From positions 3,310,944 to 3,374,943 of the forward strand of contig OZ316894.1 in assembly GCA_973895155.1 (NCBI GenBank): a DNA stretch of 64,000 bases, given 5' to 3'. The notes under the pieces were generated by a model that did no database searches, had not been told where the DNA came from, and worked only from the letters and a program-made list of their open reading frames with translations. Position 1 is the first letter of the stretch, and each line of letters begins with the position of its first letter. Positions 9,069 through 48,908 of this stretch are shown here, piece after piece. This DNA is from Marsupella aquatica. Its lineage: Eukaryota > Plantae > Marchantiophyta. The position numbers were made by a program, and so were the translations under genes.

Positions 9069-9501
9069 GGAGTAGTAGCATCAGTTTGGACACAAGTTTT
9101 TTTGTATAAATCAGATCATTGAAATAAATGTGATCTTTGAACTAATGTACCTTGTTATGGTTGGTGGCAGTTGGGCTTATTTTACTGTTGGCGGATTGTT
9201 GTTTCCTACTGCCTGGGGGTGTCACTGTAAACGTACATGCAGAGGCGGTACATTTGAGGACAGCGGAGGAGGTGGTGACACCCTCCAACATTTAGGAATT
9301 TTGTGTCATTCACTTGACAATAGGTACACTACTTGCGAACCTGTTTTTTTCTTTTGGGGTGGTTTAGGGTTTGTGAGAATTTAGTACACGTTATGTTAAC
9401 TCTTTTGGCAGATACAGTCAGGGATATATGGAACACAAATACCACCATTAGGCATCCTTGTTCATTGCTGTCCATGACTGCAGAGCTCCCAGCCTGTTAC
9501 A

Positions 9502-13227: not shown

Positions 13228-13382
13228 GTAATGTGAATTGTTTGCATGGACATTAGTGAGGGGAAGGATGTGTAATAAAGTAATTCTGAAGCAACATAGA
13301 TGTATGGATGGATGCCTGGTGATTGTGGTTGCATTGTGTTATACGGGGTGACCATAGATGACATGTTTTTATGGTCCAGTAG

Positions 13383-16300
13383 GATGGAACAGAGTGACAC
13401 AGAGATGTGTGAGTATGAAAGGAAAGCTATGGAACAACGAGCATACGTGAAAGCCAAAATCGCAGAACTGGATCTGGAAAAGGATGTGGCTGAATTGTAA
13501 GGGAACGATTCTCAACTACACCCCTCCGCTGAGTTTGTGTGACATGAATAGTTCAATGTGGCACTAAAATTGTGACTGTATTCTCATATTGGAATGTCGC
13601 AGAGCCACAGCATTTTCAAAGAAACAAAAGGAGTACGCAAGAAGGGTGACCAACACTATCTCTGGGCCTGTGCGTCGGAGTGACAGGTTGAGCAAGAAGG
13701 TCGTACCTACAATGGCAGAATGTGGAGATGACATTGATGCTGCACAGGTGGGTGCAGACACTAGACAAGAAGATGCAGATGATGAGTATTTTCCAGAGGA
13801 AATGGATGAGGATGGGGGTTATGAAGATGAATACATTGCAGAGCAGCCCCAAAAGAAACATGTAAGTAGTTTTCCCAACAAGGTTTTGAGTTAAAAACTC
13901 TTGTTTAGAGGTTTCATATGTTCAGTACTACACATATGTACCTTGCTTAGTTCCTGACATTGTAGTTGGTGATGTGATGCAGCGTCCTGCCAGTTCTGTT
14001 TTGCCTTCGAAGCCTGTGCATGCACCATACCAGCAGGGGGGCTGACCTCTGATCAAGGTTGGCGAGGTGGTAGTAGTGGTAGATCCCAGGCTGGTGCCCA
14101 ATACTATGGCAGGGGGCAAGCTCTAGGTTATGCCCGTGGTAGAGGCAGAGCAGGTCCAAACCCACAATCTCGTGGGTATGGACGTCCACCTCAACCATGG
14201 GGATGTGAGTATATATCTATATGCCAGTTCTTTGTGAAGGCATGGCACTCCTGAATTTCAGACTGCATATCAATTTTTGACATTGTTTGGGATGTATTGG
14301 ATTCAGACAACATGAAATTCTGTCCACCTGCCATTGCATGCAGATTCTGCCCAACCTGATTGGGCAAATGCTAGTAATGATCAGTTCCAATGTCCACAAG
14401 GACAGACATGGGTTGAACCAGGTTGGGAGGATGGTGGTGGGTCGTGGAATGAACAAGGTTGGGAAGGTGGTGAAGGTAATTGGCAGGGATATCAAAATTC
14501 AGTACCTACAAACTCTGGAAGAGGAGCAGGTAATGTCTGATCTTGTCAGCAATGGAAGAACTCATTATATGTGGAGTCCATTCACGTGGGGGGGACTCTG
14601 CACATGTATAATGATAGAAAATGTATGTGTGCAGGTTGGACAGTCGAACCATCGACTCAAGTATTCACTAATGCCCCTATGCAGATGCAGCACGGAAGGG
14701 GGACAGGTATGTCGGTGAATGTTCAGTTGTTTTCCTACAGTTTGTACTTAGTTTTCAGTACATATGTTTGCACACACATACCTAGAAAGTGACATCATCC
14801 GGCCCCTGTACTAGGCTGGACAGGTGGTCCAGGGTCGCAACAATTTCAGAGTGCAGTCCCTGCACAGGCATCTACAGGCAGAGCTACAGGTATGTATGTT
14901 TGAAGAATTTTTCTTGAAGTGAAGCATTGAATGTTGCCGTCATCCATTCTGCTATATGTAGTTCTCAAGCATGAATGGCATTGTATTTTCCCAGGTGGCT
15001 TCAGAACCCCAGGTAGGGTGAATGAAGGGGTGGCCAATACAACGCCCAGTACTACCGAGAGCAGTGCACGAGGGGAGGTGACAAAGAAAGGGAACGTAAA
15101 GTTGAATGAGAGACAATGGGTGGATGCTGAGTGTCCTCGCAAGAACCGATGGCATGCTGATTTGAAAGCTGAAGTATTGCGTTGGTTAGATGTGAGTGTT
15201 ATTAATTTTAAAAAACAGCATCCAAAAGATTGGAAGACTGTATGTGAAAATGTTGCTGCCAAATGGAATTATGTGGGCAGTGATGATGGCGTGGACATAG
15301 GTTGCCTAGAGAGTACAACAGGTAAAATTATCAAGCAAGAGAGGTGGAGAATGCATAAGGCTTGGAAGGAAGGTGGGGAGAAGCCAGATATGCCTCCACC
15401 AGCCAGTTGTGATGATAAAGTGTGGGCAAGGTTAGTAGCTTATTTTGTAACAGATGCTTCAAAAAAGAAGAGTTCACAGATGACCGAGGCCAGGTTGAGT
15501 GTTTAGAACCCTAATCTGACAGGAAGGACCGGCACTACACCGACAGCTAAACGTTTCATAAGAATGAATGGCCTAGCTATGTAATTTATGCTACACTATG
15601 TACTATTTTTTAGTGTAAACCCATACATGTAAACTTTGTTTTTTAGTGTACGTTCCCTGAATATTGATCGATAACTTGTGTTTGCCATGCATGTGCAGAA
15701 AGCCCAATTGGGGCAAAGCCCTTCAAAAGAAGAGTTGAGGGCTGAAATTGTGAACACCCGGGCTCAAGAGGGTGCATCTGAATCCTCCAAGCATGTAAGT
15801 TATATGAGTTCTGATTGGTAATTGAATGACCTGCGTTGAATTTCAGGTGTACACTGTATATAACATTGATTGTGCATATATTGCCCAACATTTCATATGG
15901 AGTGATTGAACCTATACCCCTGTGTCATGTAGGGAGGTGGATCTTCACTTACAGAGATAAGTGGTCGTTTGAAGGCTGTCGAAACATGTCTTCCAGAGAT
16001 CAATGAACGTTTGAATTCATTAACTGACTTGTTCCATGTGAACTTCAAGACATTAATGGAAGCTGTTGTGTCGGTGAGAGATAAAATTGATTCCAATTCT
16101 GCAGGAGTTCCACCATCACCACTTGAGGTGGCAAAGTCGATGCACTCTTCTGGCATGCCAACGACATGTAGGCTTGAAGGTAAGGCCTTTACAACTATGT
16201 GGGATATGATTATTAAATGTATAGTTTGAATTGACATTGTTTGTTGAATGTGTTATTTTCAGTAACATATATTGTGGTTGTTGTGTCCATAGAGAATAAG

Positions 16301-19448: not shown

Positions 19449-22400
19449 TCATACCATTGTTTGAAGATACTGATCCAATGCACGTCTATGTATTGGATCC
19501 AACACATAGATACGATCCATAACCCCTTCTTTCATGGTTAAGCTAACACTAGCAATGACCATTTCAATATCCATCCATTTCAAATCAGTGGTATCATATC
19601 TGAATTCACTTTTGCTCTTACCAATAGGACTATACCAATTTAACAACAGTTCACAAATGGTACCTGATTGCCCTGCGAGTGGAGTTGGCCTATCCATCAA
19701 ATCAATTGGTAACCAACAATTGCCCCACCTACTACGTACCATACTTCTGTCTCATTTGGACAATCCGACCCAACCAAAAATATTTCTTACCTGCTGAGAT
19801 TGCCTCCACCGCAGCCTTATTCTTTCCTCCCTTTTTTTCTAGATCTAGTACTTGGAGCAGGATTATCATCAGACTCAAATACAATTGCACAATAAGTGCC
19901 AACATCAACAAAACATGAGTTAGGACTGGCTTCTTGCACTTTTCTCTTGCCAGTACTATAGTATAGCACTTGTTTCACCCTTGTCAGCCTATCTTTTGAC
20001 AAATGTGGATTGCCTACCAGCTGGCTTACCAGAGTGGATTTGTAAATCACCTTGCCTTCATAAGTAACAGTAGGCACTACCTTGGTTCGATTAATATGCA
20101 CATTAGTTACAGCATGGACAACTGATCCAAACACATGCCGAACTTCATGGCCTAATGTCTCAAGCTCATCTGAGGGGTCTACATCAAACTGTATATCATC
20201 TCTATGTACATCATCTGAATGCATCTCAGGAACAACAATGGGATCTGGTTCTGTTAACCATGCATCTATTCTATTCTATTCAGATCATCCTCAGGATCTT
20301 CCAATTCATGAAAATCTCCAGTTGGGCGAGGACCTATGTCCGGTGGTTGGTGCTCTACTTGCTCCTCAGAATCATTGCAAACAACTGCTTCCTTCAAAAC
20401 CACCTCTAGTGGCCAGGTCTCACTTTCCACAACCCAAGGACATGTCCACCATCTCTTTCTTGCTGCTGGTAAGGAACTTTGTGGAGACATCTGCAATTGA
20501 TGCATAAGATCCTTAGCAGCAACAAAACCTTCTTTAAGGGCTGCAACCACTAATTCATTAGTCTCAATGAGAGAATAGTCAAGTAGATTTGGTGCTTCCT
20601 CCCCTTCCCCTATAGGATGAATCTTCCCCCATACATGATCTTGCTTCTTATGTGAACGACATATCTCCAAGCCTTCTGGTCCATATTCCAGGCAGCAAGC
20701 CGGTTCAATCCAACAACACTATCCAACAGAGAGCCAAAATCATAATTTCATTCATGGCCACTCATGCCTCCTACCTTGCTGAAAAAAATCTCACAACAAT
20801 CCAAACCTAGCAAGTGGAAGGGAACACCTAGATGTGGGAACTTATCTCGAAAGGCACAAATTAACAACACAATGAAATGACATGACATGTTAACATCATG
20901 AAAGGCCTGAATAGACATCATGTCTTTCTCAATGTGTGCTGCAAAGTTCCCCCCCCACTGAATGGTCACCAAACCTCAACCACAATCTCCACAAACGTAG
21001 AAAGAATGAAACCTTGGATGCTAACACAATACGGGACCTCAAGTCATGAACTGGAGAAAAGAAAATATCTAAGTAATTTGCACAAATCTCCAAGTACAAC
21101 TGAGTTCCTAAACTTCGTTCATCTCGTACATCTCTCCTCTCATACATATCTTTCATACATTGCTGCACTCTTCTTGCTGCTATTTGTTGTGGACCTGCCC
21201 AATTCTGCCGGTCAGTCCTATTCACATCATCCCAAGCCATGCCATGTTCATGAATTGGATAATGATTGTAGACATTAGCTACATAAGATAAAGATGCATG
21301 TTGATCTCCTAGCACCAGTAAAGAAGACACTCTGTATAAGGGGTTTATCATCTTTTTCCCATTGTGAGGTTGGTCTTGGTCACCAAAGCCATACAAATCC
21401 CCATTTGGTAGAATTGAAACAGAGTATGCCCACCCTTCCCACCCAACTCCGTACCTTGGGTATGATCCATTATGCCCTATGTAATCTTCCAGCATCAACT
21501 TTTGGCGACGTGCATTACCATCACTAGCATGTCCAAGCAAAGGGCCTACCATAGCTCTACAATATTCATCCCAAAAAGCCTTTAACTGGACCCAATGCTC
21601 TCGTACCCAAGAAGCTGTGAACTTATTACAAGTTGGAAGTGCACACACAGCCAATTTAGGTAAGGACTCATGCAGAGGATTCACAATCACAACTCGGGCA
21701 TACATGCACTTGGGGCATTGTTCAAATATACTTACAATTTTATCATACCCCTCATCACCTTCACCAACTAGAATTTCCAAACCATAGGAGCATACATGCT
21801 GCTCTGAAGGTCCACAAAAACCAATGAGAGTATCATACTTTGCCTCCCACCTGAAACACAGACATGCAATTTTTCAATATCACAGCAATTGCAGCCAAGT
21901 GCTACTTGTAAAGTCATTTAAAAAACAATTGGAAAAATGTCCAGTTCCAATTACCTAGGGCGTTCTTTGATCCTTGTTTCATCCTCAGCAAAGATAACAA
22001 GCACATCCCCCTCAATGCCTAATGAGTGCTTTGCAGCAGACAACACTCTAGCAATCTCCTGAAAGGTTTCCTTCTGTAACCCGGTTTGAAAAGGTGTGAG
22101 TTTCGCTCTATCACGTTTTAGGGTCACAAGGCTAGGGGCTGTCAAGTTTCGTGCAAACAATGAGCAACTTGACGGCCCCCAAATTGGAACATAGCCTGAG
22201 CAATAGCTTGAGTCCTATTACTATAACGATTACCTTTTGGCTTCCTGCCTAAATTGCGAGCTACATCCTTCAAGAAATCCCACAAACCCTCCTTACCACC
22301 AAATGCACCATTCCTGTGTCCATTCAAAGTACTCCTAAGAAACAATCTCAAATCCTTCCAGTCTGCTGCAACTCCTAACAACTCCTCTAGTTTCTTTTCC

Positions 22401-25400
22401 TGGTGCTCAAGGCACATACTTTTTGAGCCTGCAAAGCTAACAACCAATGCTCTTTTCGTCGCACAGAGTTCAGCTTGTGCACTTGATCTCTTAACTCTGG
22501 GTTGGTCAAATAATCCAATCGTATACCACCAGTAGTGGTTCAGCTCCCTCTGTGGACTACTGCTTCCGCTTCCCTGTGCACCCGTCCACGAAAATCATCT
22601 TCTAGTGTTATAGAATCACATTCACTACAAGTTAGATTTTCAAATCCTCCTCCATTCTGTGATAACCTCAACCAATCCTTGTGTCTAAAACAGCCTGCTA
22701 TACTCACAACATAGTCTCTACTTGGATGGAAAACATCCAAGCAACAACATGGCTCACAATGCCAAGTAATTCTCCCAGACTGATCATCCAAAATGCCAGA
22801 AATATCATAAGATACACTAGTACATTTTACCTCCTTTTTCCGATTCTCTCCACATCGAACGTCTTTGTAAAACAAAATATGAAAAAACTATACATCTGAT
22901 TCTACCGGCATCGTAACATGCCATGATAAAAGTATCGGATATCGACAATCGGACTTATATCGGAAAGTCCGATGCTGACAGAATGGGAAAGTCTGATGCT
23001 AAGAGAATGGGAAAGTCCGATGCTAAGAGAATGGGAAAGTCCGATGCTAAGAGACTGGGAAAGTCCGATGTTGGGAGAATGGGAAAGTCCGATGCTGGGA
23101 GAATGGGAAAGAGCAAAACAATGAAAATGGGATACACATTGGAGCGGACGCGGGGTGCTCAGGTCACCCATCTCTTCCTTCATATATTTACTTTCATTTT
23201 GCAACCACGAGCGAGGTGCCCATCTCCTTTGACATTTCAACTCTTCATTCCTCAACTAAGTGGTCACCCATCCCAATTGCTATTCCTCCAACATGAGCTT
23301 AACTTTGTGGTTCTTATCCCTCACAATGTACATGCAAGCTTAACACTTTTATTGTTTGACTTGGAGTGTTTAGGGATTTTATACACTTCTAAATTTATTA
23401 AGACCCATAATTTGGACCTAAGCTGGGCAGAGTCGGGAGAGGCCGACAGGCAACATGCAACGATGCAGCCCCAGCCAAGCTAGAGGCAGCCAGGGTCAAC
23501 GACAACACAGCCCGGGCCGGGGAAATGAGGATGCAACGATAGTGGCAAGGGTGGAGCAAAGACGCAGCCAGCAGTGCGCCTCGACTATGGTGACAGAGAA
23601 ATGGAGGGGAGGAGAAATGGATTAGCCGACCCACCCCTCCGCAAACTATATTGAGGGTTCAAAATGTAACCGTGAGAGAAGCAACGACCGTCCAATGGGA
23701 AGACCCAAAGAAATCTCAAACGTCGGATCTTAGGTAGTTAACCTGAGTTACTTTTCTTAATCGATGACTCAAACGAGTGGCAGACTGATAAATACAAGAA
23801 AAAGAGTGGCAATGTAGTGATTATGCCACAAAAGTGTGGCATTAGACTAATAATCCCAGTTTTGCTCTTTCATGATATTGCATACATGTTTGCATCGAGT
23901 GATCTATAATTACGATTACCCTCTTACATTCCCTTGGAGCAATCAATAGAAATTTGGGGTCATTTGTGAATAGTAAAGCCCTCCTCCATCCGACTTGACA
24001 TGAGATCATTATAGTTTATTAGTTATGGAAGATTAATATTTTGGTCCTTCCAAAGCCTTGGCGTCAAGGGCAGCTCCCGATTGTCTCATCTTTCATCAAC
24101 CTTGTTGTTGTTGGACTTGCAACAAAGACTACATGCATGGGACAAGCAATCTCCTTTTAGATGATAAATTTTTGATTTTGCATGTTGAGCAAATATTGCC
24201 AAAAGGGAACAATATTTTGGGATCTTGGAAGGAGGCAAGAACAACATTCAATTAAGTCCATTTGCCTCAAGTATGAAGTCATTCAAACATGCAAGAATGA
24301 TTGTATCCTCTTTTCTAGGAAGAGTATGTCGGTGCAACTACATGCCCCATCTAACACAATAGGAATTTGTCATTTTGCCAATTGAAAATGAAAAATTTCT
24401 CATTCTCCCATCATCGGACTTTCCCATTCTACTAGCATCGGACTTTCCCATTCTCCCAGCATCAGACTTTCCCATTTTCTCAGCATCGGACTTTCCCATT
24501 CTCTCAACATCGGACTTTGTCATTTTACCACAATCGGATATAATATCCGTTCTTATCACTACGGCAATTTTCCGATCAATATTGAAACGCACATCATTTC
24601 CGTTACAAAAAACATTGGACATATCAATCAAATTTTTGTTAGGGGATCTGATGTATTTTGTAACGGATATGATCCATTTTTTACCGCATTGGAAAGGTTC
24701 CGTTGTTAATTACATCGGAAATGAAGATATCCAAAACCGAGAGTATGGCATATTGCCATTTTGTGATAATGGGAATTTCTGATTCTAAAAGAATCGGACG
24801 CCGATTGTTTGCAAAAATTGAGCATCAGAAATCAGCTAAATATGTACTAGTGATATACCCTTCCATAACACTCGAGGCACACCTCTCTCTACCCATAATC
24901 CCCAGCAAAGCAAACTCAGACCAAGATCAACAGATCCACACACACCTGTACCTGAACCTGAACTACTGCCTGTTCGGGACCCATCATCTTTAAAGAACTT
25001 CAAAATCCCGCTTTGACCAAGATGTAGGTCCCTATAATCAGTCCTCTTTGGCCTGCCCCTCTTCCCAGACCTCAAGGCAAGCATTTTTGTGTCATGCCTA
25101 GTCTCCAATGCATCCAAGTGATCTCGACTCACTAAGTGTGTCCTCAAATTGGGCTCCAAGGTAAGCTTCTTGGGGCACAAGTCAGTATGAAGCATTCCAC
25201 ATACACTACAGCGAACCTTAAACAGGAAAGACCTGTTTGCATACTCAGGAGTACTGGGATCAGGAACAATAGAGAATAGTTAGCCATCATCCCCAAGCTC
25301 CGCATTCAATCGTTGAACTATCTCAACGCCTACTTTGATGGCGTCTGCATGATCATATTCTGGCTTCTCAGAGATGTCTGCTACCTGAACCAAAGTAGAA

Positions 25401-26074
25401 GGAATGCCCCTTCTCCGACAATAGTTATCCTTGTGCTTATTGAAGACCAAGTGTTTGGTCTTAAAATTACTAAAGCAATTGGAGATGGATTTAGGGTTCT
25501 GAGAGTTGTCTGCATTGCCATAAGTTTCCCTACATTCAAGACACTCCAGATGCCCTCGAACATCTGTCCCCTCATCCCAGGTACAAATTCTCCAATTGTG
25601 ATCACCATAACCCTTCTTATGTACCCATTTCTCTAACCTCATCCACTCATCTTTCCATAGCTTTGATGGGACATCTCCCATCAATTGTGACTCAAAAGAA
25701 GCCCTTACAGGGGAGGGTGCTGGTGCTGTTGGCCCCAGTTGTGGTGTCCCAGTATTCATACCCAATGATGCAGGAGTGCAAGGATGACAGGGTACTGGTG
25801 GGATCCTCCCACCATCTCCAAGTTCTTGTTGTACAACAATAACTCTTCCATCCAGCTCAGACAAATCAATTAATTTCTCATGTACAGGTTTCACTCGACC
25901 AGGAAGTCTCTCATCCCAAAAATCAACGTCAAAGTCTAGAGTAGAGCCAATCCGAGCCCTAAAATCATGTACGGTGTGTCCTTCTTTGAATGACAAAACA
26001 CAAATTGGTAAATCAGCCTTGTCATCCCCAACTTTGCGTATTAATTTAATAGAGTTGGGTTTAGGTGCTGCCAT
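19449..26074 (-). pseudogene. P-element-like DDE transposase with two N-terminal C2H2-like Zn fingers and an AT-hook; disrupted
   Basis: Motifs FAEDET-RIK..PRW...D..IGFCG, HASDG, QDQPHNGKK..N, DRQNW, GTQLYL, FFLRLWRLW, LDCCEIFFS; N-terminal CLEC..H..H, CSVC..H..H and KRGRPKR. Intron ~21852-21954. The frame is restored (WKGISYDI) when the nested CACTA is removed; frameshifts and stops remain. Confidence 0.7.
22815..24852. mobile_element. Non-autonomous CACTA (2.04 kb) inserted in the P-like transposase gene
   Basis: CACTAGTACA...TGTACTAGTG termini; TSD ATA (22812-22814, 24853-24855); 21-bp subterminal repeats (agaatgggaaagtccgatgct) inverted between the two ends; vestigial TnpD peptide LKYEVIQTCKNDCILF at ~24260-24315. 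Confidence 0.93.
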
Positions 26075-27004
26075 TGCAATACAAATCTAGAACATGCATT
26101 GCACCATTGCTTTTGGAGTCGATAACAAAAAGACCTGCACAAATACATTTGAAATACACACAATGCAAACACATTAGGATCTTCAAGAGATGCAATGACA
26201 ACATACACATTCTCATGTAATACACATATTGTCAACATACATTTAACAATAGAAGTGCTAATAGGGCAAAACACTTTATAATGCAATTCATACAAGCAAA
26301 TGTATTCAGTGAAAATCATGATATACCGTTAAAGTTGGATAAAATATCTTTGGACAAAATATCCTTTTCGCCTGGTTTTCTAACAATTCCCGAGGTTTAG
26401 TGCTTCTGCTCATCAAAATGCAGCACTATTAGTGACAGTAATTATGACAAAATGTCAACACTAATAAAATTGGGTACTATCACCCATGATGTAGCTTAAG
26501 TATTTGCCTTGCTCATACCCCACTAAGACGTTAAACCTACGTAATAGGTTTGTTCATTATTCAGATCACTGGAGCCATGAAATGTGGTCCCTGATTGGAG
26601 TCTTCAGGTGTGGATCAATAGGATGACGGGGGCAATAAAACATCTGTCGCTGTTGTCCATGTGCTTCATGTTCCCAGATGTCCCTATCATGAGCAAACCC
26701 TTTGCTTTTGATCATCTGGAGACAATCTGTATGCCAGGCATTTGGACATCGTAGACATTGTACCATGTTCTTGACCATCTGACCCTCAAGACTCTGATAA
26801 CATGTCACACATGTATGCAGTGGGCAGGACTTTGCATCAGCTACCAAACACCCAAAGCAATAAAATCGTACACAAAAACGATCAGAGCATTTTCGCACAA
26901 TTGTAGGTGATGGTCCCACAGTGCGGCACCCATAACACATGGCCTGGTCCTGGTTACAATTTGGGCAAAACCATGGCTTCCCTCCATGATGGAGGGGAAG
27001 GACT

Positions 27005-27612
27005 TGTCGTGCGCATACATATCGCTACACAACATACATCGCTTGTCACATACATCCAGACATAGTCACACTGCCACATCACAAACACAAAAGAATGGAA
27101 TACAAGTGGAACTCATGTCCACACATGTCCAAAACCCACAATAATCTCAATACAATCGGCACAACGATCCCGGTCAACAATACCCCATCGATCCCTCACC
27201 GATCCGATTACACACGTATGTCAAGCCAACGCACCTTGCACTACTCAAGGAATCCACGTTACACAAGCGGAGCTCACAGCTACCATAGCCACACTCAAGC
27301 TCCTCTCTCTCCAAGGCTCAACATTGAAAGATGACCTTTCAATGCCTCACAAGTGAGAAGTACCCTCTCACACAAACCTGACGGAACCTTATCGGCTCCA
27401 ATAGCACTCATACCAAACATACATACTCTAATAGCACGATATACTACTACACTACTCAGAATGGCGTGACAGCTGTCGTGCGCATACATATCGCTACACA
27501 ACATACATCGCTTGTCACATACATCCACACATCTAGTCACACTACCACATCACAAACACAAGAGAATGGAATACAAGTGGAACTCATGTCCACACATGTC
27601 CAAAACCCACAA
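27005..27612. repeat. Terminal repeat block A1 (27005-27141), B1 (27142-27471), gc, A2 (27474-27612)
   Basis: A1 is near-identical to A2; B1 is near-identical to B2 (36159-36488); palindrome GACAGCTGTC at 27468-27477. Confidence 0.92.
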
Positions 27613-27613
27613 T

Positions 27614-27622
27614 CGCCCCCCT
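27614..27622 (-). promoter_or_regulatory. Putative short polypurine tract (AGGGGGGCG on the minus strand)
   Basis: G-run immediately 5' of repeat A2 on the coding strand. Confidence 0.5.
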
Positions 27623-27786
27623 AGCTGGGAGTAAGGTCCCCTAACTCTAGCTAGCCATGAGTTCTACAAGGTTGATATACACCTTTTTAGGTGTGAAGAT
27701 CAGGAGGCCGGGTGCAAGTGAGCCCCATCGATCACCTACCTGCAATCCATATCTGCCAAGAGAACACAAATGATAACTAGTCGGCT

Positions 27787-27930
27787 TCATCGACACTGAG
27801 GACACAACCATGATCCACTAGGAATCACCTGCAATGGTGGTGTCAAACATGACATGTGCCATCCTCTAGAACACTTATCACAAATCAACATAGTAGCTGC
27901 TCCTTGAGCAGATCCACACAACATACATTT
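27787..27930 (-). CDS. C-terminal PHD finger of the Gypsy polyprotein
   Basis: Canonical C4HC3: CMLC...LICDKCSRGWHMSCLTPPL..IPSGSWLCPQC; in frame with the integrase. Confidence 0.9.
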   Translation of the reverse strand, partial: KCMLCGSAQGAATMLICDKCSRGWHMSCLTPPLQVIPSGSWLCPQCR

Positions 27931-28109
27931 CAAGCCAGCACGAACATGTGCCAAGCTTGGATCTACTATACCATCAATGTTGGGAAGGTGACATGGTGCA
28001 CAGTTGCGCACATGATCCTTCCAAACCATACCATCGCGTCCCTCCAACATCAGAACACCAAAAGGCAACACTTCACGCACACGTAAGATTTTCCGGCCTG
28101 CGGTCACAT

Positions 28110-29060
28110 CAAGTGTCGTGGGTGTTGTCTACTGCAAATAAATATAATCACCAGGATGAAATCGCCGAATGCTTGCACGATAACCTCCTCCACGAATAGT
28201 GGCATACCTCAAAGTAGCACGATGTTGGGCAATGGTAAGGTTGTCGAAAGCCATGGGCATCACTCTCTAAAATACCCGTGCTCTCTCTAAACACACCTTG
28301 ACCCAAACATCAGGATCATCCAAGTTCACAACTGATGCAACATCACGATGAATAGCTGCTGGCAAATCTGGCTCTCTACCATAGAGCAAAAAGTAAGGTG
28401 AGAAGGATGCAAGTGATGCTTGCCGACTGAAACGGTAGCCCATAGCTAACCAAGGTAGCTGGAGATCCCAATCTCCCAGATGACCAACCTGCAAGCCATA
28501 CTTACGCAATCCTTTCTTCACAGTTTGCACAACTCTCTTAGCTAATCCATCTGCCTCAGGATGATCACGAGAGGTAGTACGATGATCAATCAGAGCTTGT
28601 TCACACAAACTCTCAAACTCTCCACGGAACTCAGTTCCCTGATCAGTCAACACCTCAGCTGGTGCTCTAAAATGACTGAGTACACGATCCAAAAATGTAG
28701 CAACAACTCCTCCACTGGCTTTATCTGGCAACGCCACTAGCTCAATCCACTTGGAGAAGTGCTCCACCATGACCAAAACATACCGATTATGACGTTGGGT
28801 AAGAGGTAATGGACCAGCAAAATCCAAACTCCAATGATATCCCAAACCCATGATCGGCAACGGGTGCAACTGGGGAGTGGGAGCATTAAACGATGCTCTC
28901 ACTCTATCACATACCACACACTTAGCTATCAACTGCTGGACATGAGTGTGCATACCACGCCACCAATACTGTGTCTACAGCAAGCTGTAAGTGCGCTTTA
29001 CACCAAAGTGACCCAACTCCTCGTGCGCATGTCGCACCAAATGTACTCTTTGTGATGGTT
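28110..29060 (-). pseudogene. Integrase (HHCC zinc finger + rve core)
   Basis: HEELGHFG...CVVC, WSLDFAGPLP, LTDQGTEF, DGLAKR (catalytic E appears mutated to K); in-frame TAG stops. Confidence 0.92.
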
Positions 29061-29399
29061 TGGGGACCACCAACACTCTACCATCATGCAGTACTCTCAA
29101 AAGATGGTTTCCCTCCCATCGAAACCTCTTGGCTCTCTGTAGAACCCTATCACGTTCCTTGGCATCAACACTGCCAACAATAGAACCACTGCGCAGATAT
29201 TCCAACACTTTCACATCATTGTGAATATCTTGCTGTCCAGTAGTTACCTCACTAACATCCACATCTGAAGACTCATCATCCACTCCATCCAATGAGGTAG
29301 AGTCCACAGATCCACTGTATGCTGGCACCCAACAAAGAAAGGCAGATGCATGCCATCCTAGCACCATCTCCTTATCTGACTCATCATGCCATCTGGCTC

Positions 29400-30900
29400 C
29401 AGTCTCATCTTGCTGACTGGTACATGGATTGCGGCTTAATCCATCTGCATCCAAGTTCACTTTTCCAAGCCTATGCACCACCTGGAAATCATACTCCTGT
29501 AACAACAATGCCCATCGTGCAAGCTTCCTTGTAAGCTTGTCAGACTCCATTAACCACTTAAGAGGCTGATGATCAGTGATCAAGGTGAAGGGGTTACCAA
29601 ACAAGTAGCAACGAAAGTGTGCAACAGCCCACACTGCTGCCAAACACTCTCCCTCATAAGAGCTATACTTAGCCTCTGCTGAATTGTTTGATCTACTGGC
29701 ATAAGCCACAACAAACTCATTCCCCTCATCATCCTTCTGAGTCAGCACTGCTCTAAGTCCTACTCCACTCCAATCAGTGTGTAGCTGAAATGGTCTGCCT
29801 GAAATGGGTCTTCTCAAAATAGGGGATGATGCCAACCTTTGCTTCAACTCCTGAAAGGCATGCTCCTGGTCATCACCCCAAATCCATTCCTGATCCAACT
29901 TAGTGAGTATGGTCAAAGGTTTAGCAAGCTGGCTAAATCCTTTAACATACCTCCTGTAGTAGCTCGCCAATCCCAAGAATGCACGAACTCTGCTCACATT
30001 AGTAGGACAAGGAATCTGTGTAATGGCCTCCACTTTAGTCTGCTGTACACCCAATCCCCCTAGGTATATAGTGTGGCCCAAATACTCAATCTGGTCTTGG
30101 AAGAACTTACACTTGCCAGGATGGAGCTTCAACCTATGTGCTCTCAATCTCTCCAACACAATCTGCAAGTGCTGCTAATGTTCTTCCACAGTAGAAGAAT
30201 AGACCAAAATATCATCAACATAACATCTGACAAAATCCAAACCTGCAAGGATTTGATCCATGACTCTCTGGAACTCAGCTGGTGCATTCTTCAACCCAAA
30301 TGGTAAGAATAACCACTGATACAAACGATCTTTGCCATAAGAATCAATCCCCCAGAATGTTGTCTTGGACCTGTCAGCATGCCTAATTGGAAGCTGATGG
30401 TACCCTGCCCTCAGATCCAATGAACTGAAAACCTTTGCATGCCCCACAGCATCAAAGATCTCCTCAGGTGTGGGCATGGCATATCGATCAGATTTTGTCT
30501 GGCGATTAATAGGTCTGTAATCACCACACATGCGCCTATCTGTGTAATTGCCATGCACATCCTTCTTGGCTGGCATCACTGTGGCAGATGCATACTCCCC
30601 ATATGAAATCTCCACCAATCCAGCCTCCAACAAATCTTGAGTTCTGCTTTGAATCAGAGCTCTCTCCATGTCACTATAACGGTATGGTCTACGAAAGATT
30701 GGCGCATCACTAGCCAATTCAATCTGAATACCAGGACCCTTCAGTGTCCCCAAATCCTTCATGCTGAATGCAAAACAATTCCAATAACTCTTCAGGAATC
30801 GATGCATGCGACGTCTCTCCTCCCCTGTTAACTTAGGGCCAAACTGTGGTTCCCAACTTTCCACCAAATCCCTAATATCTCTTTGTAGGGTAGAAGAGAT
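29400..30900 (-). pseudogene. Reverse transcriptase and RNase H
   Basis: RMCGDYRPIN, LDLRAGYHQL, LPFGLKNAP, YVDDILV, LHTDWS, YASR, YEGECLA, TDHQPL, ADGLSR. Confidence 0.95.
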
Positions 30901-31089
30901 AGCCAATGATTGCTGTTTAGCAGTAGATTGAGTAGTCCCTTCCTGCTCAACAATCTGTCCAGCCTTGGCCAATCCTGCCATAGGTCCATGGACTGTCTGC
31001 TCGCCCCCAGCTGTGGTCAATACTGTCTCAGTGGACCGCAAGCTCACCAAGGGACAATCAGTAATTCCAGTAGAGCGCATCCGCAACTA

Positions 31090-32070
31090 TTCAGCTACTC
31101 CCAAGCTGATAATCCAAGTCAAACAATTCAGGTCCATTGCTTGACCAAGAACCTGGCGCCGCAAACCCTCTGACACAGAGGCAACTGCAGTGGTGCCAGT
31201 CAAAAATCCCATAGCACGCTATCTCTCATCAGCAGTAGGCTCCACTAACTGCTGGAGAGCTGTGTCCCACACAAGTCCAGGGCCACCTGCTCTGAATGCA
31301 TATGAAGCAGAGTGGCTTACAAGAGTGGGTAATGCACAACGTGGGCGCCCAGCTGCATTGACCATTGCCAATGGAGGTCTATCAGGTTGGGTCACACCCT
31401 ATGCCCGACGCCCTGGATCCAAACTATCATCCACCACTAAGGCTGGTGAGCGTGGAATGTTGTCAAATGCGCGCTTCAGCACCTCACATGGGATCAAATT
31501 AGTCCACCATAAGCATGGACGATGTGCACGAAAATCCACACGTGCAGCATCCAATAACACAGTAGGTCCAATCCAAGACCTCACCTGGTGAACACTGGCA
31601 ACAATCTGACTACGATCATCACCTAACAATGGCACATTCTCCAAAATGTATGTTGGAGATTGTGTCTGATGTAGCTGGAGATGACGCAGTACCCGTAACA
31701 TCTCCCAAAACAATGCAGAGCGTGGATCATGAAGTCCATGCCCAATGCCAGCTCTAGATTGGCCCTGACATGGCCAACCAGGAATCACCAAATCAATGGG
31801 GCCAACACGATGTAGATGATCCGCCCCCAACAATGAAATATCAGCAGGTAGTGCATGCTGATAACCACGAACAGCATCCACTGGCAGCAACTGTGGATAT
31901 CTATCCACCAACATAGCCACATGTCGCAATGAGACCCTCCGTGCTGTCTCATCTGTCTCCACATACAAATAACGACGCATAGGAATTCCTGGCTGAAGAA
32001 CAGCAGCCAATCCAGTGCTAATCCCACCAAAAAGATCCAACAAACAAATACCCTCCGGTGGATATTGCCA
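31090..32070 (-). pseudogene. C5 DNA cytosine methyltransferase domain within the Gypsy polyprotein
   Basis: Motif I LLDLFGGISTG, II YVETD, IV GWPCQG, VI ILENV, VIII AHRP.LWWTN, IX ER*RAMGF, X LGQAM; located between protease and RT, in frame. Confidence 0.9.
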
Positions 32071-32562
32071 AGCAATAGGAGTGGTATGCAATGGTGAAAG
32101 AGTCACAGGTCCATTTGCAAGAGACTGCTCTGCTCCTGACTGTGGTGTAAAAGCATGACGCCATGCATCATGTACCAATCGTGCTGCGGCCTGTAGCAAG
32201 GCTTGTGTAGTGCCCCACACTGGTGGCACAACACTGCCAACAGGTAATCCTCGCATGATGTGCTCCTCATGAGACTCCTCCAATGGTGGAACATCGGCTG
32301 CATGCGCATTACCCTCAATCAAATCATCAGGTCCAGCAATTACACCACTGAATGCTGCCAAAGACAATGGTGTGGATTTAGGGCCTCCCACAGGTCCACT
32401 AAATCTCACTGGCAATTTGCTCAATCGAGCATCTCCTGACTGCCAATCAGGTCTATATGACACTGATTCCTCCCAAAAATCAAGAATAAATCCCATGGGG
32501 TAGAGCACTGTACATCCCACCAACACATCATATGACTCTGCCTTAGTCAGAATAGCTCGCGC

Positions 32563-33222
32563 CTATATCTGTGAGCTATCTGTGGTATGACCTTCCTGAA
32601 TCCTCAAATCAAGTGCTCTCCTGGTGATATGCTGTGTAGGTGTAGGTCCCCCCAATGAAGTCTGAATGGGAAAGGGACAATCCTCCAAATCCTCTGGACG
32701 CAATCTCAATCCATGTATGGCAGACTTCCCCAACATCAAGGGCTGAGCACCAGTATCCAGTAACACTCTCTCTGGCTGGTATACTGCTCTAGAAGGCCCA
32801 ACTAATCGAAAGATACCACTCCGATTATCCAATGACACAACACTAGGTTTAAACCTAGTCCTCTCAAATGCAGGGCGTGTTGGTAAATCCACCAACCTCG
32901 CTGCTGCTGCATGCCATGTCTCACTAGTAGCAGTAGGTGGTATGGTCTTTACTGCTTCAACACTGCAAGCTGCTTCTGCATGGGAAGCAACAACTGGAGT
33001 GTCCTCACAGAGTGTAGCTGCCAATCTGAACACTTCTGCAGGACCAACTCCCAAGTTCAGCATGTCTGTCGCTGAAAATAATGGGGTGCGTACTATGGCA
33101 GTAGCCACCCCCAGCAGGGTACCTGTCATCCCTACTGTATCACTACCGGATTCTGCCAACTTACCCACGCCAGGGTTTGTCCGAACCGGGTTCATAGAGG
33201 CAGTCTGAACTGTCTCTGACAA
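32563..33222 (-). pseudogene. Aspartic protease region of the polyprotein
   Basis: VLLDTGAQPLMLG active-site motif. Confidence 0.85.
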
Positions 33223-33231
33223 TGCAAAAGA

Positions 33232-34905
33232 CTAAGGAAGCTTTGTCTGCCGACGTGCATCTCCCCTCTGTGGATCTAGCTCCACTACTGCTCCTCGGGG
33301 CTCAAGAGCTTTGGCTGCCCCACGTGTCAAAGCTGCTGATGCATCAATATGTGCAGTGCCACACATGAATCCCATGGTGGCAAGATCTCCATCAACTCCA
33401 TAAGATGTGGAAGGACCATGGGATGTGGAAGGTCCATAGGATGTAGATGCCCCATCACCAGAAGTAGGTCTCACCTGGGAACTAGCCATGGCAGCTAGCT
33501 GTTGCTCCAATTGAGAAATCTTAGCATCCTTTGGATCTATGGTTACAGTAGGGGCAGCGTCACCTCCCTGTCTCCCTGCATGTGGCATGCCACGACCACG
33601 TCCACCACCTCTACCTCCTCCTTCTCTTCCCTGATCATGTGTACGGGATCCTCCCCTCCGTAACTCAGGGTGGAGTGAGAAACACCTATCCTTGGTGTGT
33701 CCAGGAGCTCCACAATGATCACACTGTCGCTGATCAGGTGCTGATGCTCCCCCTGATCCTCTATGATCTGGACAATATCTTTGTGCATGATCCCCACCAC
33801 AGGTCCAACATCTTGACTGTTGTCCAGCATAAGAGGGCATAGGTCTCTGGCTGGTAGACTCTCGTGCAGTAGGCTTCTCCCTCTGGCTCTTCCGTGCAGT
33901 AGACTGTGGTGTGGATGTAGATGCAGCCTTTGGTGCTTCCTTGGCAAATCCAGAAGTCACCACCTTCTCATTCACCATATTGAGCTCAATGCGCTCAGAA
34001 AGGGTGAAAACAACTGCTAATGTGGGATCTACATCCCTAAGCAGAGTGACATCTCTCACTCTGTGTCGCAATTCTCTGTCCAGAATTGCATACCAAAACT
34101 GGACTGCCTGAGCCTCTGTCACTCCCTTGGTGACAGTGATCAATCTGCGCATACGTGTGTATGCCTAACGTAGGCTCTCTCCAATCTTGCGTTAGAACTC
34201 CTGAAGACCCTTCAACTTATCAGTTCTCACACTCTGATAGTTCTGCTTCAGTACCTCAAAGAATTCCACCACAAGATTAAATGCTGGCGCAACTCCAGTT
34301 CCTATCACAATCACACCGGCAGGAGTAGTGGTGGATGCTGCTGGAGTACTGCTGGTGGATGGTATGCCACTCTGGCTAGTGCTGCTAGAAGAGGCAACAG
34401 CTGTGGCAATGGGTTGGGCAGCCGCACTAGTGCCATAGGTGATGGACACGTAATTAGGTGACCAATGCTGCCTCCATGCCTCAATCTCAACCAAATGAGC
34501 CTTCCGAAACTCATAGTAGTCATCCATGGGTGGCCCCTCCAAATGCTGAAATAATCTCTTCCATGCCATGAAAGGGTTAAACAACGTGGCGTTACGCAAT
34601 GTCTGCATATCGCACCACGTATCAAACTCCTGGATGAAGTCATCCAGATCAGTTGTGCCAACTGCACCAGAGTATCATCGTGGGCCCTTTGTAGCCCCGT
34701 ACATCTCGTCCATATCCCACAACAAAGGTGCAACCACCTGATGATGAGGAGAACTGGTCACTGAGTCCTCATCAAAATCACTGTCTGAAGCTGCACTGCT
34801 GACTGCTACCAATGCCGCTGGCCGAAACTGTGCCCCACTCCGAGTGAAACCGGTCCATCGTTCATCGGGTAATCCAGCAGCACCAGAAGAATCCGTGGTG
34901 ACCAA
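33232..34905 (-). pseudogene. Gag with two zinc knuckles
   Basis: CWTCGGDHAQRYC and CDHCGAPGHTKDRC followed by an RGG-rich stretch; same frame as pol; in-frame stops. Confidence 0.8.
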
Positions 34906-36147
34906 CGCTAACCTAATCTATGTGCTAACCCTAAGGGCAATCTATCCCTGTTAGCACCACAAGCACTCACCATGGTGTGTTGGGCATCACTCCAACATCA
35001 CCAGGAGAGAAATACATAACACAACTAGAATGTCCGGTTGCAAACCCGGATCACTCCTATAGAATCAAGCGCCCACGCCAAACTAACATGGCGCATAACA
35101 GGAAGCATGTGTGGAGAGGATCCAACAACAAGAAGAGGATTTACCACAACTCTCCACACCAATCAATCAGAAATACATGTAAATAATGTGCATATAGTTC
35201 AATGTAGGGCCTTCATAATAGGCTTCAAGAATCCCGCGTCAATTATTCAAGAATCCATCGCAAACTAGCTAAAACAAAGTATCTAGATGAATTCAAAAGT
35301 GCATAAAACCCCTAGGGCCTCATTCCTTGGACATCAAATGTGGAAGGAAGCATGTACAATGTACCACATAGAAACTTGCTAGTTAAGCGCATGAGAGGAG
35401 GAATAGCTTTGGGATGGGTGACCTCTCACTTGTCATTATGCACCAAATCTGCCACTCCAAAATGGCAGCACTTGCAAGTACTCCTCACGTCCAGCAAGCT
35501 GGCTTGCTGACCCGCCCGCTCTGCCCTCACGCCCCTCGTCCCGAGTAACCACGAGTTGCCTCGAAGCCTCGAAACGCCGAGATGAGCCAAAGAGTGAGCC
35601 CTTCACGCCCGCTACGCCAAATCGAGTTTCGGCAACATTCAGATTTCCGTCTCTCAGTTTCCCTTCACAGAACGACGTACAGTCGAGAGTTGCGGATCAG
35701 CTACGAGCAGTCGGCGCCCTGTCGATCGGATCCGCAAGTTGCAGCAACTTCGCGCGGATTGGCCCTTCCACATAACCGCGCGGAGCATCGGCAGATCGCC
35801 GCTTCACTTGCGCCTTATCACAGTAGTCAAAAATCAGATCTGAAGCCTCGTGGATGACTTCCACTGTCCGACGATCTGCCAACATTCGCGGAATGCTTTC
35901 CTCCACGAAAACCAACATTCAAACTCGGCTACAACAGCAGCGTTATGTGCCCAGATCCGGTGACACAATGAGCAATCTTCAATGATCTGTGATCTCTTTC
36001 CTCAAAATAGCATTCGCCAACACAAACTGCAGCAGATTGAAGGACTAACAATCTACTCAATGAGATCCGAGATACCACGGATCCACGCAACAGATTGAAA
36101 CGATTTCCACAAACCGTCACCAACTCAATCAATCCGATTCGCATCTG

Positions 36148-36159
36148 ATCTTTCAATGT
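36148..36159 (-). promoter_or_regulatory. Putative self-priming primer-binding site
   Basis: The 12 nt flanking the inner edge of B2 (plus strand atctttcaatgt) are the exact reverse complement of 36338-36349 (acattgaaagat) inside B2; no TGG-type tRNA PBS is visible. Confidence 0.55.
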
Positions 36160-36488
36160 AATCTCAATACAATCGGCACAACGATCCCGGTCAACAATAC
36201 CCCATCGATCCCGCACCGATCCGATCACACACGTATGTCAAGCCAACGCACCTTGCACTACTCAAGGAATCCACGTTACACAAGCGGAGCTCACAGCCAC
36301 CATAGCCACACTCAAGCTCCTCTCTCTCCAAGGCTCAACATTGAAAGATGACCTTTCAATGCCTCACAAGTGAGAAGTACCCTCTCACACAAACCTGACG
36401 GAACCTTATCGGTTCCAATAGCACTCATACCAAACGTACATACTCTAATAGCACGATATACTACTACACTACTCAGAATGGTGTGATA
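36159..36488. repeat. Terminal repeat B2 (5' end of the element on the coding strand)
   Basis: About 98% identical to 27142-27471 (about 7 differences seen); not preceded by repeat A. Confidence 0.92.
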
Positions 36489-37250
36489 GACTGCACAGGG
36501 GCAAGAGTCATTAGGGGCTTTATCTCCAACCACATAATGAAATTGCCTGTGACATGGCCCATCACAAATTACCAACTTCCCACCATGCTCACAAATTGCA
36601 CAAACATGAGGGCTGGTTTGTAGAATCTCTTGCTCAAAGAACAAGGGAATACGCAATACCTCTTCTAAAGAGGCTCCTCTGTCAGAGGACGGTGTTGCTT
36701 TCTTTATGTTTGAAGTCCTTGTCGGCATGGTTACAACTGAAATCATCACAAAGCACATCACATATGAGAGGGACATGTATGATAGTGGGCAATCCATAGA
36801 CAAAGATAAGGTTAATCATAGCACTTGGAGAAATCCACATTTCAAGTAGTTACAAACCTGCTCCAATGATCTGCAATCCTCCCTCCCAAATGAAGTCAAC
36901 TACACAGTGCAGCCTGGACACCCACCAACCAAGACATACATAAATACAATGCCAGCTTGCGAAACTTTGCCACATAATGGGAATGAAAATTATTCTCATA
37001 TATCATGGATGGTACAATTGCAGCCTTGCAAACAAAGGCCTAGTCATCCTGCTAGTCATATATGAACAACGCATCCATGTACTATCAGGGACTACAATGT
37101 CAAGCATCCATGGGCTGTAACCTTAGCTTGATCTGGAATATTATCTGGGGCTACAATATCAAGCTCAGTTATATGTGGAATAGTATCTGGGACTACAATG
37201 TCAAGCGTGTCCGGGATGACAATCTTGCGTAAAAGACACTCATTTTGAGG

Positions 37251-47300: not shown

Positions 47301-47972
47301 TCAGGTCCGTGTCTAAAACTGTCTCTACTCCGTATTTAAACTGTCCCTAGCCCGAGGAGGGTCATTCAATCAAGGTAATTCGAAGGTATGAAGCTGGGGT
47401 CGGATGGTTTTGCAAAGAGATAGCTCGTCAAGATATATAGCACTTGCACTTCGGTCCAAGAGCTCCAATCGTAGGTGTTGCGAGACTTCGAGGTAAGGCA
47501 TTACAAGAATATATGCGGTATGTAGACTGGCGAGTGGTGACTGCACATTTGCTTCTCTCCAAACTCCTAACTTAAGTTTTATTATTAGTTCGTGGCAGAG
47601 ATGACTTCGATCCCAATGCACCATTATCGACCGTGAACGAACGTGAGCAGGGAGATGCATTTTCTGTCAATGCCTGATGCTACATTACTGTCAACATACG
47701 CGGTCGAGAGAAGTTTGTCTGCGTGCACCCAGTTCGTCTAATTATGCAAATGAATGTCGTCATATGAGTTGAATTGAAATCCAGTAGTGACAAGGTACTT
47801 GATTGGTTTGAATTGCAGGGGCTCGGACCAAGATTTATAGAAGGCTACGACAGCGATCGTCGAATCTGTAGGAAATTCCAGGGCTACGCAACTAGCTCCT
47901 AGTCTCGTTCAGTTTCGCACTAAGTAACTGGGAATAGTCGCTTGCGTTGAAGTTGAATTTCAACACTCAAAA

Positions 47973-48908
47973 ATGGATCAGCATCACAATCCAATTTTCC
48001 TTCATCTCTTAGTACTCGTGTTCGTGGGCTTTGCCCTCCTCCCTCCCGCCTCTTCTTCGAAACCCCCCACGATCAGTCCCCATGGCACCCTCTCCATTCG
48101 CACATCCGGCAATATAACCACTGTAGTTATCTACAACCCGCCAATAAACCTCTTCGACTTGAAGCTCGGAGCGGATCTGTTTGCCTTCTTAAGCTCCCTA
48201 GATCCCTCTAACCGCACCACGCCACCGCCCAAGGTGGTGATCTTTCGCAGCGGCGATCCTGAACTCTTCATAGCGCATCTCGACCTCCACGCGTTTCTGC
48301 CCCCTATTACACCTGAGAAGACTCTTCTGACGCAACTGTACCTAAGCGGGCTTGCTCTACTGCAAAATTTGACGACGACTGTGTTCATTGGGGAACTCAA
48401 TGGGGAAACGACCGCCGGTGGCAGTGACTTTCTTCTCCAAATGGACATGCGATTTGCAGGCCCGAAAGCACGCCTTGGGTCGTTGGAGACGTCAATTGGC
48501 CTTACGTTGGCCTCAGGCGGGATGCAGTATCTTGGTCGGCTGATCAACAAGGGGAGGGCCATGCAGTATCTGCTCTCGGGAGATAGCGTGGACTGCAAGA
48601 CCGGGAAGGAGAACGGCTTGTTCAATGATTGTTTTCGGAGCCAGGAGGAATTGGAGGAGACTGTTTTCGCGTTGGCGAAGAGGATTGCCTTGAGGCCGGA
48701 GCAAGGACTGCAAGGGACCAAGGTCGCGCTGCAATCGCTAAATCCCCCCGCCAGCGTGCTTGCGGCAGACCAGATTGCTATTCAGCCGTTGTTTGCGAGT
48801 CCAGTAACGCTTGCGTTGATCCAAAAGTTCCTGGTGCTGGATAAGAATCAAACGAGGAGCCCGTTTGAGTTGGGGTTGGATGCTACGCTCGCAGAATTAT
48901 ATCAGTAG
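47973..48908 (+). CDS. Enoyl-CoA hydratase/isomerase (crotonase) family protein with N-terminal signal peptide, intronless
   Basis: 311-aa ORF with hydrophobic leader; NPPINLFD, KVVIFRSGDPELFIAHLDL, GGSDFLLQMDMRFAG, LETSIGL...GG...L.RLI..GRAMQYLLSG. Confidence 0.88.
   Translation: MDQHHNPIFLHLLVLVFVGFALLPPASSSKPPTISPHGTLSIRTSGNITTVVIYNPPINLFDLKLGADLFAFLSSLDPSNRTTPPPKVVIFRSGDPELFIAHLDLHAFLPPITPEKTLLTQLYLSGLALLQNLTTTVFIGELNGETTAGGSDFLLQMDMRFAGPKARLGSLETSIGLTLASGGMQYLGRLINKGRAMQYLLSGDSVDCKTGKENGLFNDCFRSQEELEETVFALAKRIALRPEQGLQGTKVALQSLNPPASVLAADQIAIQPLFASPVTLALIQKFLVLDKNQTRSPFELGLDATLAELYQ

Follow-up and report, generated by a model that had tools for sequence, protein, structure and literature searches.

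We analysed a window of 64,000 nucleotides from the liverwort Marsupella aquatica (contig OZ316894.1, positions 3,310,944 to 3,374,943; coordinates below are those of the plus strand of this window). Between positions 27005 and 36488 it contains a Gypsy-type long terminal repeat (LTR) retrotransposon, coded on the minus strand, whose repeats are not arranged as one complete LTR at each end. In coding-strand order the element reads X1 - primer site - internal region - purine tract - Y1 - 2-bp spacer - X2 - Y2, where X and Y are repeat segments, numerals mark their copies and the spacer is written nn. This split layout recurs in independent insertions of related elements and is a real, clade-wide feature. 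The parts of the window copy, together with the frame that it interrupts, are as follows.

26566..27004, minus strand: downstream half of an interrupted NSD-like PHD frame (domain search; frame restoration)
27001..27004, no strand: left copy of the 4-bp target-site duplication, identical to the right copy; at the empty-site joint the 4 letters fit both sides
27005..27142, minus strand: Y2, the terminal Y copy, whose CA end is the 3' integrated end (comparison with Y1)
27142..27143, minus strand: X2/Y2 joint, exact in this copy; 27142 fits either side, a one-base ambiguity
27143..27471, minus strand: X2, the inner X copy (comparison with X1)
27468..27477, no strand: perfect 10-bp palindrome CA-nn-TG with spacer 27472-27473, the putative uncut internal attachment site (sequence)
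27474..27613, minus strand: Y1, start of U3, adjoining the purine tract (repeat comparison)
27614..27623, minus strand: polypurine-tract-like G run; such a run directly precedes Y1 in all three related subfamilies
36148..36159, minus strand: primer-binding site of 12 nt whose complement lies at 36338-36349
36160..36488, minus strand: X1, the 5' terminal X copy, whose start is the 5' integrated end (comparison with X2)
36338..36349, minus strand: tract at positions 140-151 of X, predicted to be transcript start and self-primer; repeated at 27321-27332
36489..36492, no strand: right copy of the target-site duplication, the same 4 bp as the left copy
36489..36815, minus strand: upstream half of the interrupted NSD-like PHD frame (domain search; frame restoration)

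X1 and X2 differ at 7 of 329 positions (BLAST E 3e-162), and Y1 and Y2 by 3 substitutions in 138 positions plus one 2-bp indel (E 1e-60), a comparison that bears out the X-polyprotein-Y-nn-X-Y layout given in a preliminary description of this DNA. The palindrome reported there is indeed perfect: at 27468-27477 two element-end motifs are fused across 2 bp. The same description claimed TG...CA ends flanked by a 4-bp duplication, and here two lines of evidence agree with it. When the element is taken out together with one 4-bp copy, a PHD-type frame is open again, and in three of four public read runs a contig joins position 27000 directly to 36489, with 4 letters fitting either side, which confirms the element ends and the duplication independently; in the fourth run a loose contig end reads the left flank of the element. 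Two transitions are present at one integrated end of the window copy. The interrupted frame had been called a host frame; its restoration stands, but the frame may itself be a repeated DNA element, because the empty-site contigs are deep (511-1636, where depth does not equal copy number). The element is covered very deeply in the same runs, with thousands of variant contigs, so its family is abundant in them, with the same reservation about depth and copy number. Its 5' untranslated part (35125-36135) has much thinner coverage than the rest of the element in all four runs, which suggests that this part varies between subfamilies. Parts of the PHD frame and their surroundings occupy 19817-22594, 24836-27004 and 36489-36815, all on the minus strand, and nearby open reading frames (ORFs) without a Pfam match contain motifs that we take to recall P-element-type transposases.

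The coding regions of the element, all on the minus strand, place it with Ty3/Gypsy elements by their order.

27793..27927, minus strand: PHD finger at the polyprotein end (Pfam PF00628, E 9e-12)
28131..29060, minus strand: integrase (H2C2 zinc domain, rve core), broken by stops, third catalytic position mutated
29491..30543, minus strand: reverse transcriptase (RT) and RNase H (Pfam RVT_1, E 4e-19; RT_RNaseH, E 2e-36)
31402..32562, minus strand: segment with a C5 cytosine methyltransferase domain (Pfam PF00145, E 1.4e-9)
32623..32775, minus strand: aspartyl protease, weak match (Pfam PF13650, E 0.007, below the curated cut-off)
33235..34674, minus strand: presumed gag region, unmatched in Pfam, whose translation shows CCHC-like knuckles

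The Pfam domains thus run from a weak protease through a C5 DNA methyltransferase (DNMT), RT, RNase H and an H2C2/rve integrase to a C-terminal PHD finger; gag is presumed from its position. PF00145 is also found in a largely intact relative, L146, in which the PF13650 protease match is stronger (E 8e-4). With nine internal TAG stops in its main frame and a mutated third catalytic position in its integrase, the window copy is dead; all 27 aligned relatives have the DDE triad's second Asp and its Glu. The best match among solved structures is the Ty3 polyprotein (E 1e-91), and the next-best solved integrase by sequence is that of prototype foamy virus (PFV; E 1.6e-16). No tyrosine recombinase was found in the 18 element ORFs of at least 100 amino acids, nor in 13 of the 16 ORFs of L146, and the Pfam search of both elements matched no chromodomain, only the PHD finger after the integrase.

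Two observations on coding capacity stand somewhat apart. An in-frame TAG followed by a Gln codon lies between the DNMT and RT regions of L146 (3489-3497) and also of L069, L070, L077 and L101, in these four immediately ahead of the RT match; its context in L146 presumably matches the tobamovirus read-through motif, which would suggest programmed read-through, and the feature is not consistent in subfamily a. In another relative, P0082, a precomputed match to PF05869, which we take to be a Dam-type methylase, replaces the C5 methylase.

An alignment of 27 relatives was used to fetch 79 metagenome loci, whose repeats were surveyed by self-comparison and by searches with X and Y from three subfamilies. 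Loci L069/70, L088/89, L095/96, L098/128, L103/104 and L116/117 were merged as one insertion each, and L114, whose X is partial, was excluded from the count of 5' ends. A Y-nn-X-Y end is present in 24 distinct insertions among these 79 loci, spread over three subfamilies. At the 5' end Y precedes X in none of the 19 distinct loci where this end is visible, so that neither an ordinary LTR-ORF-LTR copy nor a mirror copy occurs among them. Where both ends are visible, 11 of 14 loci match at 3-4 of 4 flanking bases, 6 of them exactly, an agreement expected by chance with a probability of about 5e-11; duplication registers of 3, 5 and 6 bp fit worse than 4 bp, and the duplicated sequences vary from site to site, unlike the palindrome. 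Among complete X-internal-Y-X-Y loci, 8 of 9 keep 3-4 of the 4 duplication bases. The preliminary description had proposed, as a test, that independent insertions should show the layout with a duplication of their own, and the 24 insertions with no ordinary 5' LTR in 19 answer it in the affirmative. Another 14 insertions end in Y alone, and three of those with both ends visible (L101, L110 and L129) keep a duplication. A solo X-Y element (L107:6060-6526) has a 3-of-4 duplication, and at L089:2867-3344 a subfamily-a element is inserted beside the Y-X-Y end of a subfamily-b element.

Relatives by RT sequence were found in Calypogeia, Marchantia, Klebsormidium, Closterium, Haematococcus and Tetraselmis. 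In a quick tree, from which six rows were dropped for length (L074, P0016, P0040, P0042, P0084 and P0104), a single 38-row RT clade with a Shimodaira-Hasegawa-like approximate likelihood ratio test (SH-aLRT) value of 100 includes all 13 palindrome-bearing loci. The exact 10-bp palindrome lies downstream of pol in the distant relatives L146, L147, L148 and L137, on contigs without flanks, and in the first three it follows a G run by 60-112 bp. When two mismatches were allowed the palindrome search became non-specific, with hits also in L001, L155 and L165 outside the clade; L123 and L153 have 2-mismatch versions only, L149 and L150 stop too early, and L166, a locus outside the tree sampling, has one exact 10-mer on the upstream side of pol. 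From a genome collection of 77 loci we examined L146-L153 and a few others, and the close ones are short or collapsed contigs with a palindrome or primer site but without flanks. The L146-L153 clade elements sit in contigs of prokaryotic genome bins, most likely as eukaryotic contamination. In a viral collection of 66 loci most are distant (27-33% identity, in the RT region only), and the four examined for repeats (L001-L004) show no match to X or Y.

Every subfamily has the G run before Y1 and the primer site after X1. A purine tract before Y and a primer site after X identify Y-nn-X as the LTR made by reverse transcription, as the preliminary description had it. The reverse assignment, with X-Y as the true LTR, was rejected: it is Y-nn-X that the purine tract and primer site flank, and no TG/CA is conserved across subfamilies at the tips of the cDNA. 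What that description missed, while correctly placing the primer site at the border of the LTR unit, is the likeness to self-priming. In 13 of 18 distinct loci the duplex between the primer site and the tract in X outscores all 8 control stretches; primer site and X tract co-vary, with four different sequences in four subfamilies; and L146 and L148 have primer-site/X matches of 13 and 12 nt. Judged by these pairings, priming looks like self-priming as in Tf1/Tcn1. A tRNA-type primer site was considered and rejected, since the site has no TGG start and its complement lies inside X; no tRNA set was searched. At 36338-36363 the self-primer tract forms one arm of a hairpin whose other arm resembles the primer site, and a similar hairpin is found in subfamily c; it could regulate priming or transcript start.

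The three kinds of boundary between repeats behave differently. The spacer is 2 bp long in all 24 scored copies, and the X1/primer-site boundary is intact in 7 of 7 subfamily-a copies. At the X/Y joint, length differs in 8 of 22 copies (-3 to +1) against an indel background of 0.06 per 10 bp elsewhere in the repeats, an excess with a binomial probability of 3e-5 and a Fisher probability of 0.001; two of the variants retain one base that matches the primer site or the purine tract. From this pattern, the joint looks to be newly made in each cycle. That much of what the preliminary description said of the X/Y junction stands, with the small correction that its position is ambiguous by one base (27142). 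Within copies the divergence of the X pair and that of the Y pair are alike (r 0.88, n=10; means 0.112 and 0.111), so all four repeats are reset together. In L098:7555-16358 with L128:2054-6069 a 3-of-4 duplication encloses a copy with an inversion that lost about 650 bp at its internal break; one breakpoint is precisely the X2 tip and the other lies 15 bp inside Y2, as would be expected if the tips were free ends.

These observations can be arranged into a cycle. The transcript would start inside X1 and end inside X2, and its first 12 nt would pair with the primer site; with plus-strand synthesis from the purine tract, the linear product would be Y-nn-X / internal / Y-nn-X. The X tip and the Y tip would then be joined anew in each cycle, often imprecisely to judge by the scars, through host end-joining or an end-to-end jump by RT, two agents that would be indistinguishable. 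If each strand of the palindrome were cut after its CA, the stagger would leave 5' overhangs of 2 nt on both new ends. Their transfer to target strands at points 4 bp apart, followed by repair, would account for the outcome seen in the copies, in which the spacer is lost and X-internal-Y-nn-X-Y stands within a 4-bp duplication. We infer accordingly labelled parts for the window copy: X2 as the downstream LTR from the end of U3 through R and U5, Y2 as the displaced left tip of the cDNA, and the X2/Y2 joint as the fusion of two cDNA tips. Only the product X-internal-Y-nn-X-Y would keep R at both transcript ends and be able to copy again. The choice of the upstream site is the most conjectural step; this site might be bound and used first, as it would become double-stranded right after the second strand transfer, well before plus-strand synthesis arrives at the downstream LTR.

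What is common to several versions of this cycle, that an internal site is cut by the DDE integrase and that the tips are joined anew, we regard as probable. The fuller proposal, that inserted copies begin and end inside the LTR because the DDE integrase would cut the CA-nn-TG palindrome in the upstream LTR of a cDNA whose tips have been end-joined into a circle, seems to us from the layout and the joints to have somewhat better than an even chance. The preliminary description had a circle opened inside the LTR; its ends at an internal site, its loss of the spacer and its 4-bp duplication are borne out. Closure of the circle before integration is a separate matter, and that the tips are joined first has, again, only a little better than an even chance.

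Several points weigh against a circle as the integrating form, or against the evidence assembled for it. The proposal is built on the sequences of integrated copies, from which cDNA, circle, transcript ends and enzyme activity are reconstructed, and the related loci come from short-read metagenome assemblies. Three of the 14 both-ended loci (L082, L103 and L141) show no clear duplication, and 5 of 18 primer sites did not beat their controls. The joints were scored by eye in A/T-rich sequence between copies 2-20% diverged; the scoring omits the three of subfamily b, which were ambiguous, and of the 22 scored 14 are exact. One-LTR circles could explain the Y-only copies, but so could linear cDNA cut twice, recombination between Y segments or collapse of the assembly. 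Finally, all 14 informative copies, the window copy included, were opened at the upstream site, which under symmetry has a probability of 0.5^14 = 6e-5. A completed 2-LTR circle would offer two equivalent sites, so that opening of a symmetric circle at random is ruled out and the 14:0 bias needs an extra step; early double-strandedness of the upstream LTR would also fit a cut made before any joining.

That other order is the strongest competitor, although we hold it unlikely on balance: the integrase would cut the upstream palindrome in linear cDNA and integrate both new ends, and the resulting chromosome break between the X tip and a short Y arm would be sealed by host repair, giving the identical product without a circle. 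It explains the 14:0 use of the upstream site with no mark persisting on a finished circle, and it fits the variable joints, the L098/L128 inversion at the tips and the Y-only copies as double cuts. A break at every insertion predicts larger losses at the joint and lost duplications, however, whereas no scored joint deviates by more than 3 bp and the duplication is preserved at 3-4 of its 4 bases in 8 of 9 complete loci, an argument of little weight given that surviving copies are a filtered set. A more doubtful account has the element copied as PAT and Ngaro elements are, from a transcript running from X1 to Y2, with the inner Y-nn-X restoring the ends by template switches, the circle closed at the palindrome and opened by the DDE integrase, and the X/Y joint simply inherited. 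The layout is the A-internal-B-A-B of split-direct-repeat elements (PMC8969392, PMC5890265; here and below, papers are cited from the parts of their texts available to us), this route gives one consistent orientation, and the 14 exact joints of 22 and a 5-bp duplication near the joint common to L092 and L093 agree with inheritance. Yet ordinary LTR synthesis of Y-nn-X needs a primer site directly at X1 and a purine tract directly at Y1, which is where they lie, and joint length varies between copies while the spacer and the X1 boundary are constant.

Integration of the circle by a tyrosine recombinase supplied in trans from a DIRS or PAT element, to which such a layout is typical, is in our view very improbable: the 4-bp duplications vary, a 2-bp spacer is lost, the ends are TG...CA and the DDE residues are conserved, all of which speaks for integrase chemistry, and DIRS elements are described as lacking duplications (PMC8969392). 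As for a one-off rearrangement or misassembly of an ordinary Gypsy element, no read-derived contig spans the window copy, but the same layout in 24 other insertions, the absence of a normal 5' LTR in 19, the empty site with its 4-bp duplication in three of four runs and a published layout in a Klebsormidium relative (PMC5890265) leave it next to no probability, and for the clade it is refuted.

By enzymes and descent the element is a Gypsy element, not a DIRS element, with a non-canonical structure. It shares with Ty3/Gypsy elements the order protease-RT-RNase H-integrase, a DDE integrase, a primer site and purine tract that border the LTR unit, a duplication in the range of 4-6 bp and TG...CA termini; two complete LTRs at the ends are what it lacks (0 of 19 related 5' ends). 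Of the features of the DIRS order it has the split direct repeats; no tyrosine recombinase matched in its 18 ORFs or in 13 of the 16 of L146, and 4-bp duplications are present. PAT, Ngaro and TOC1 elements use a tyrosine recombinase and lack duplications. They resemble the window clade in their A1-internal-B1-A2-B2 layout, where the fused ends recur in an inner copy (PMC8969392); the clade differs by its rve integrase and 4-bp duplications and by having both a primer site and a purine tract.

The closest published relative is KnitGypsy-Dnmt3 of Klebsormidium nitens, described in a figure legend as having a DIRS-like repeat structure with Gypsy domains (de Mendoza et al. 2018, PMC5890265, Fig. 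4c legend). It is like the window element in joining a Gypsy Pol to a cytosine methyltransferase and in its A-coding-B-A-B repeats; by contrast, the accessible text of that paper gives no attachment site, duplication, priming mode or integration route, the main text containing no match for "target site" or "circular" and a term search of three supplementary files adding nothing. The DNMT-bearing Klebsormidium protein P0056, which in the quick tree falls in the same RT clade as the window element (SH-aLRT 100), is, we infer, KnitGypsy-Dnmt3; the window element has a PHD finger and P0056 has none in Pfam. No further paper in the collection searched names KnitGypsy-Dnmt3.

Cleavage of circle junctions by foamy virus integrase, a reaction of disputed role in vivo, offers an enzymatic precedent. 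In vitro this integrase cleaves each strand of its LTR-LTR palindrome after CA; the ends so made have 5' overhangs of 2 nt, and 2 nt disappear when they integrate (Delelis et al. 2005, PMC1180852). The PFV 2-LTR junction shares with our proposal a DDE integrase and the same 2-nt palindrome geometry, but in PFV the palindrome is made by joining LTR tips and the provirus is LTR-ORF-LTR (PMC1180852), whereas in the window clade the palindrome is encoded inside U3 and the tip joint has no attachment site. Tf1/Sushi and Tcn1 chromoviruses are Ty3/Gypsy elements with predicted self-priming that occur in non-seed plants (PMC6317226); compared by features, they differ in having ordinary LTRs and a chromodomain where the window element has a PHD finger and a DNMT. 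Among Chlamydomonas elements, REM1 is a PHD-bearing Gypsy element. Gypsy-7a_cRei likewise has a PHD finger in a green-lineage Gypsy polyprotein, and its legend speaks of "LTR subparts" and of a left and right LTR differing by 8 bp (PMC9940879).

The preliminary description knew of no account of this mechanism in a Gypsy family. A DIRS-like Gypsy layout is already in print, with neither ends nor duplication nor mechanism in the accessible text (PMC5890265); a description of the mechanism was not found. The accessible parts of PMC9940879, PMC8969392, PMC7197481 and bioRxiv 10.1101/2020.06.13.149070 hold no description of the route, and our literature search found none of integration at an internal attachment site, although subscription papers, theses, Repbase notes and the full Chlamydomonas library lay outside its reach and may describe it. 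The layout is in print once; the internal attachment site, the 4-bp duplications, the scarred tip joint, the self-priming and the one-sided opening were not found in print.

On the accepted view, LTR elements and retroviruses insert linear cDNA by its LTR tips, and 2-LTR circles are by-products of nuclear end-joining (PMC7197481). We give about an even chance to the broader evolutionary proposal that an ancient Gypsy clade extending from green algae to liverworts may have moved its attachment site into a U3 palindrome, with end-joined 2-LTR circles becoming an obligatory precursor and the PAT/Ngaro layout arising by convergence, here with a DDE enzyme. If true, this would be a natural LTR retroelement with circles as its productive form, invisible to LTR-finding software. 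In this clade the attachment site would be separate from the cDNA tips, and each productive insertion would bear a scar of tip joining; such a natural system makes the question of circles testable in a liverwort or an alga. Copies of the clade also lack the structure demanded by a survey of plant LTR elements, which required a 5' and a 3' LTR, TG/CA ends and a duplication, and so fall into its blind spot (PMC6317226). An integrase able to open double-stranded DNA at a short internal palindrome would, moreover, be of interest for inserting circular donors.

Elsewhere in the window, a MITE-like insertion (resembling miniature inverted-repeat transposable elements) with inverted arrays of 24-bp subterminal repeats occupies 22935-24538. 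A CACTA-like element on the plus strand at 8151-15506 (Transposase_21, E 8e-70) is preceded by an ORF with two BRCT domains. At 47928-48908, on the plus strand, lies an uninterrupted enoyl-CoA hydratase-like ORF with a hydrophobic, signal-like N-terminus, for which horizontal transfer is one possibility. A leafy liverwort host is indicated by an uninterrupted RabGAP-TBC ORF of 796 codons on the minus strand (57757-60147), which has 95% identity to a Calypogeia fissa protein over the part searched and 73% to Marchantia.

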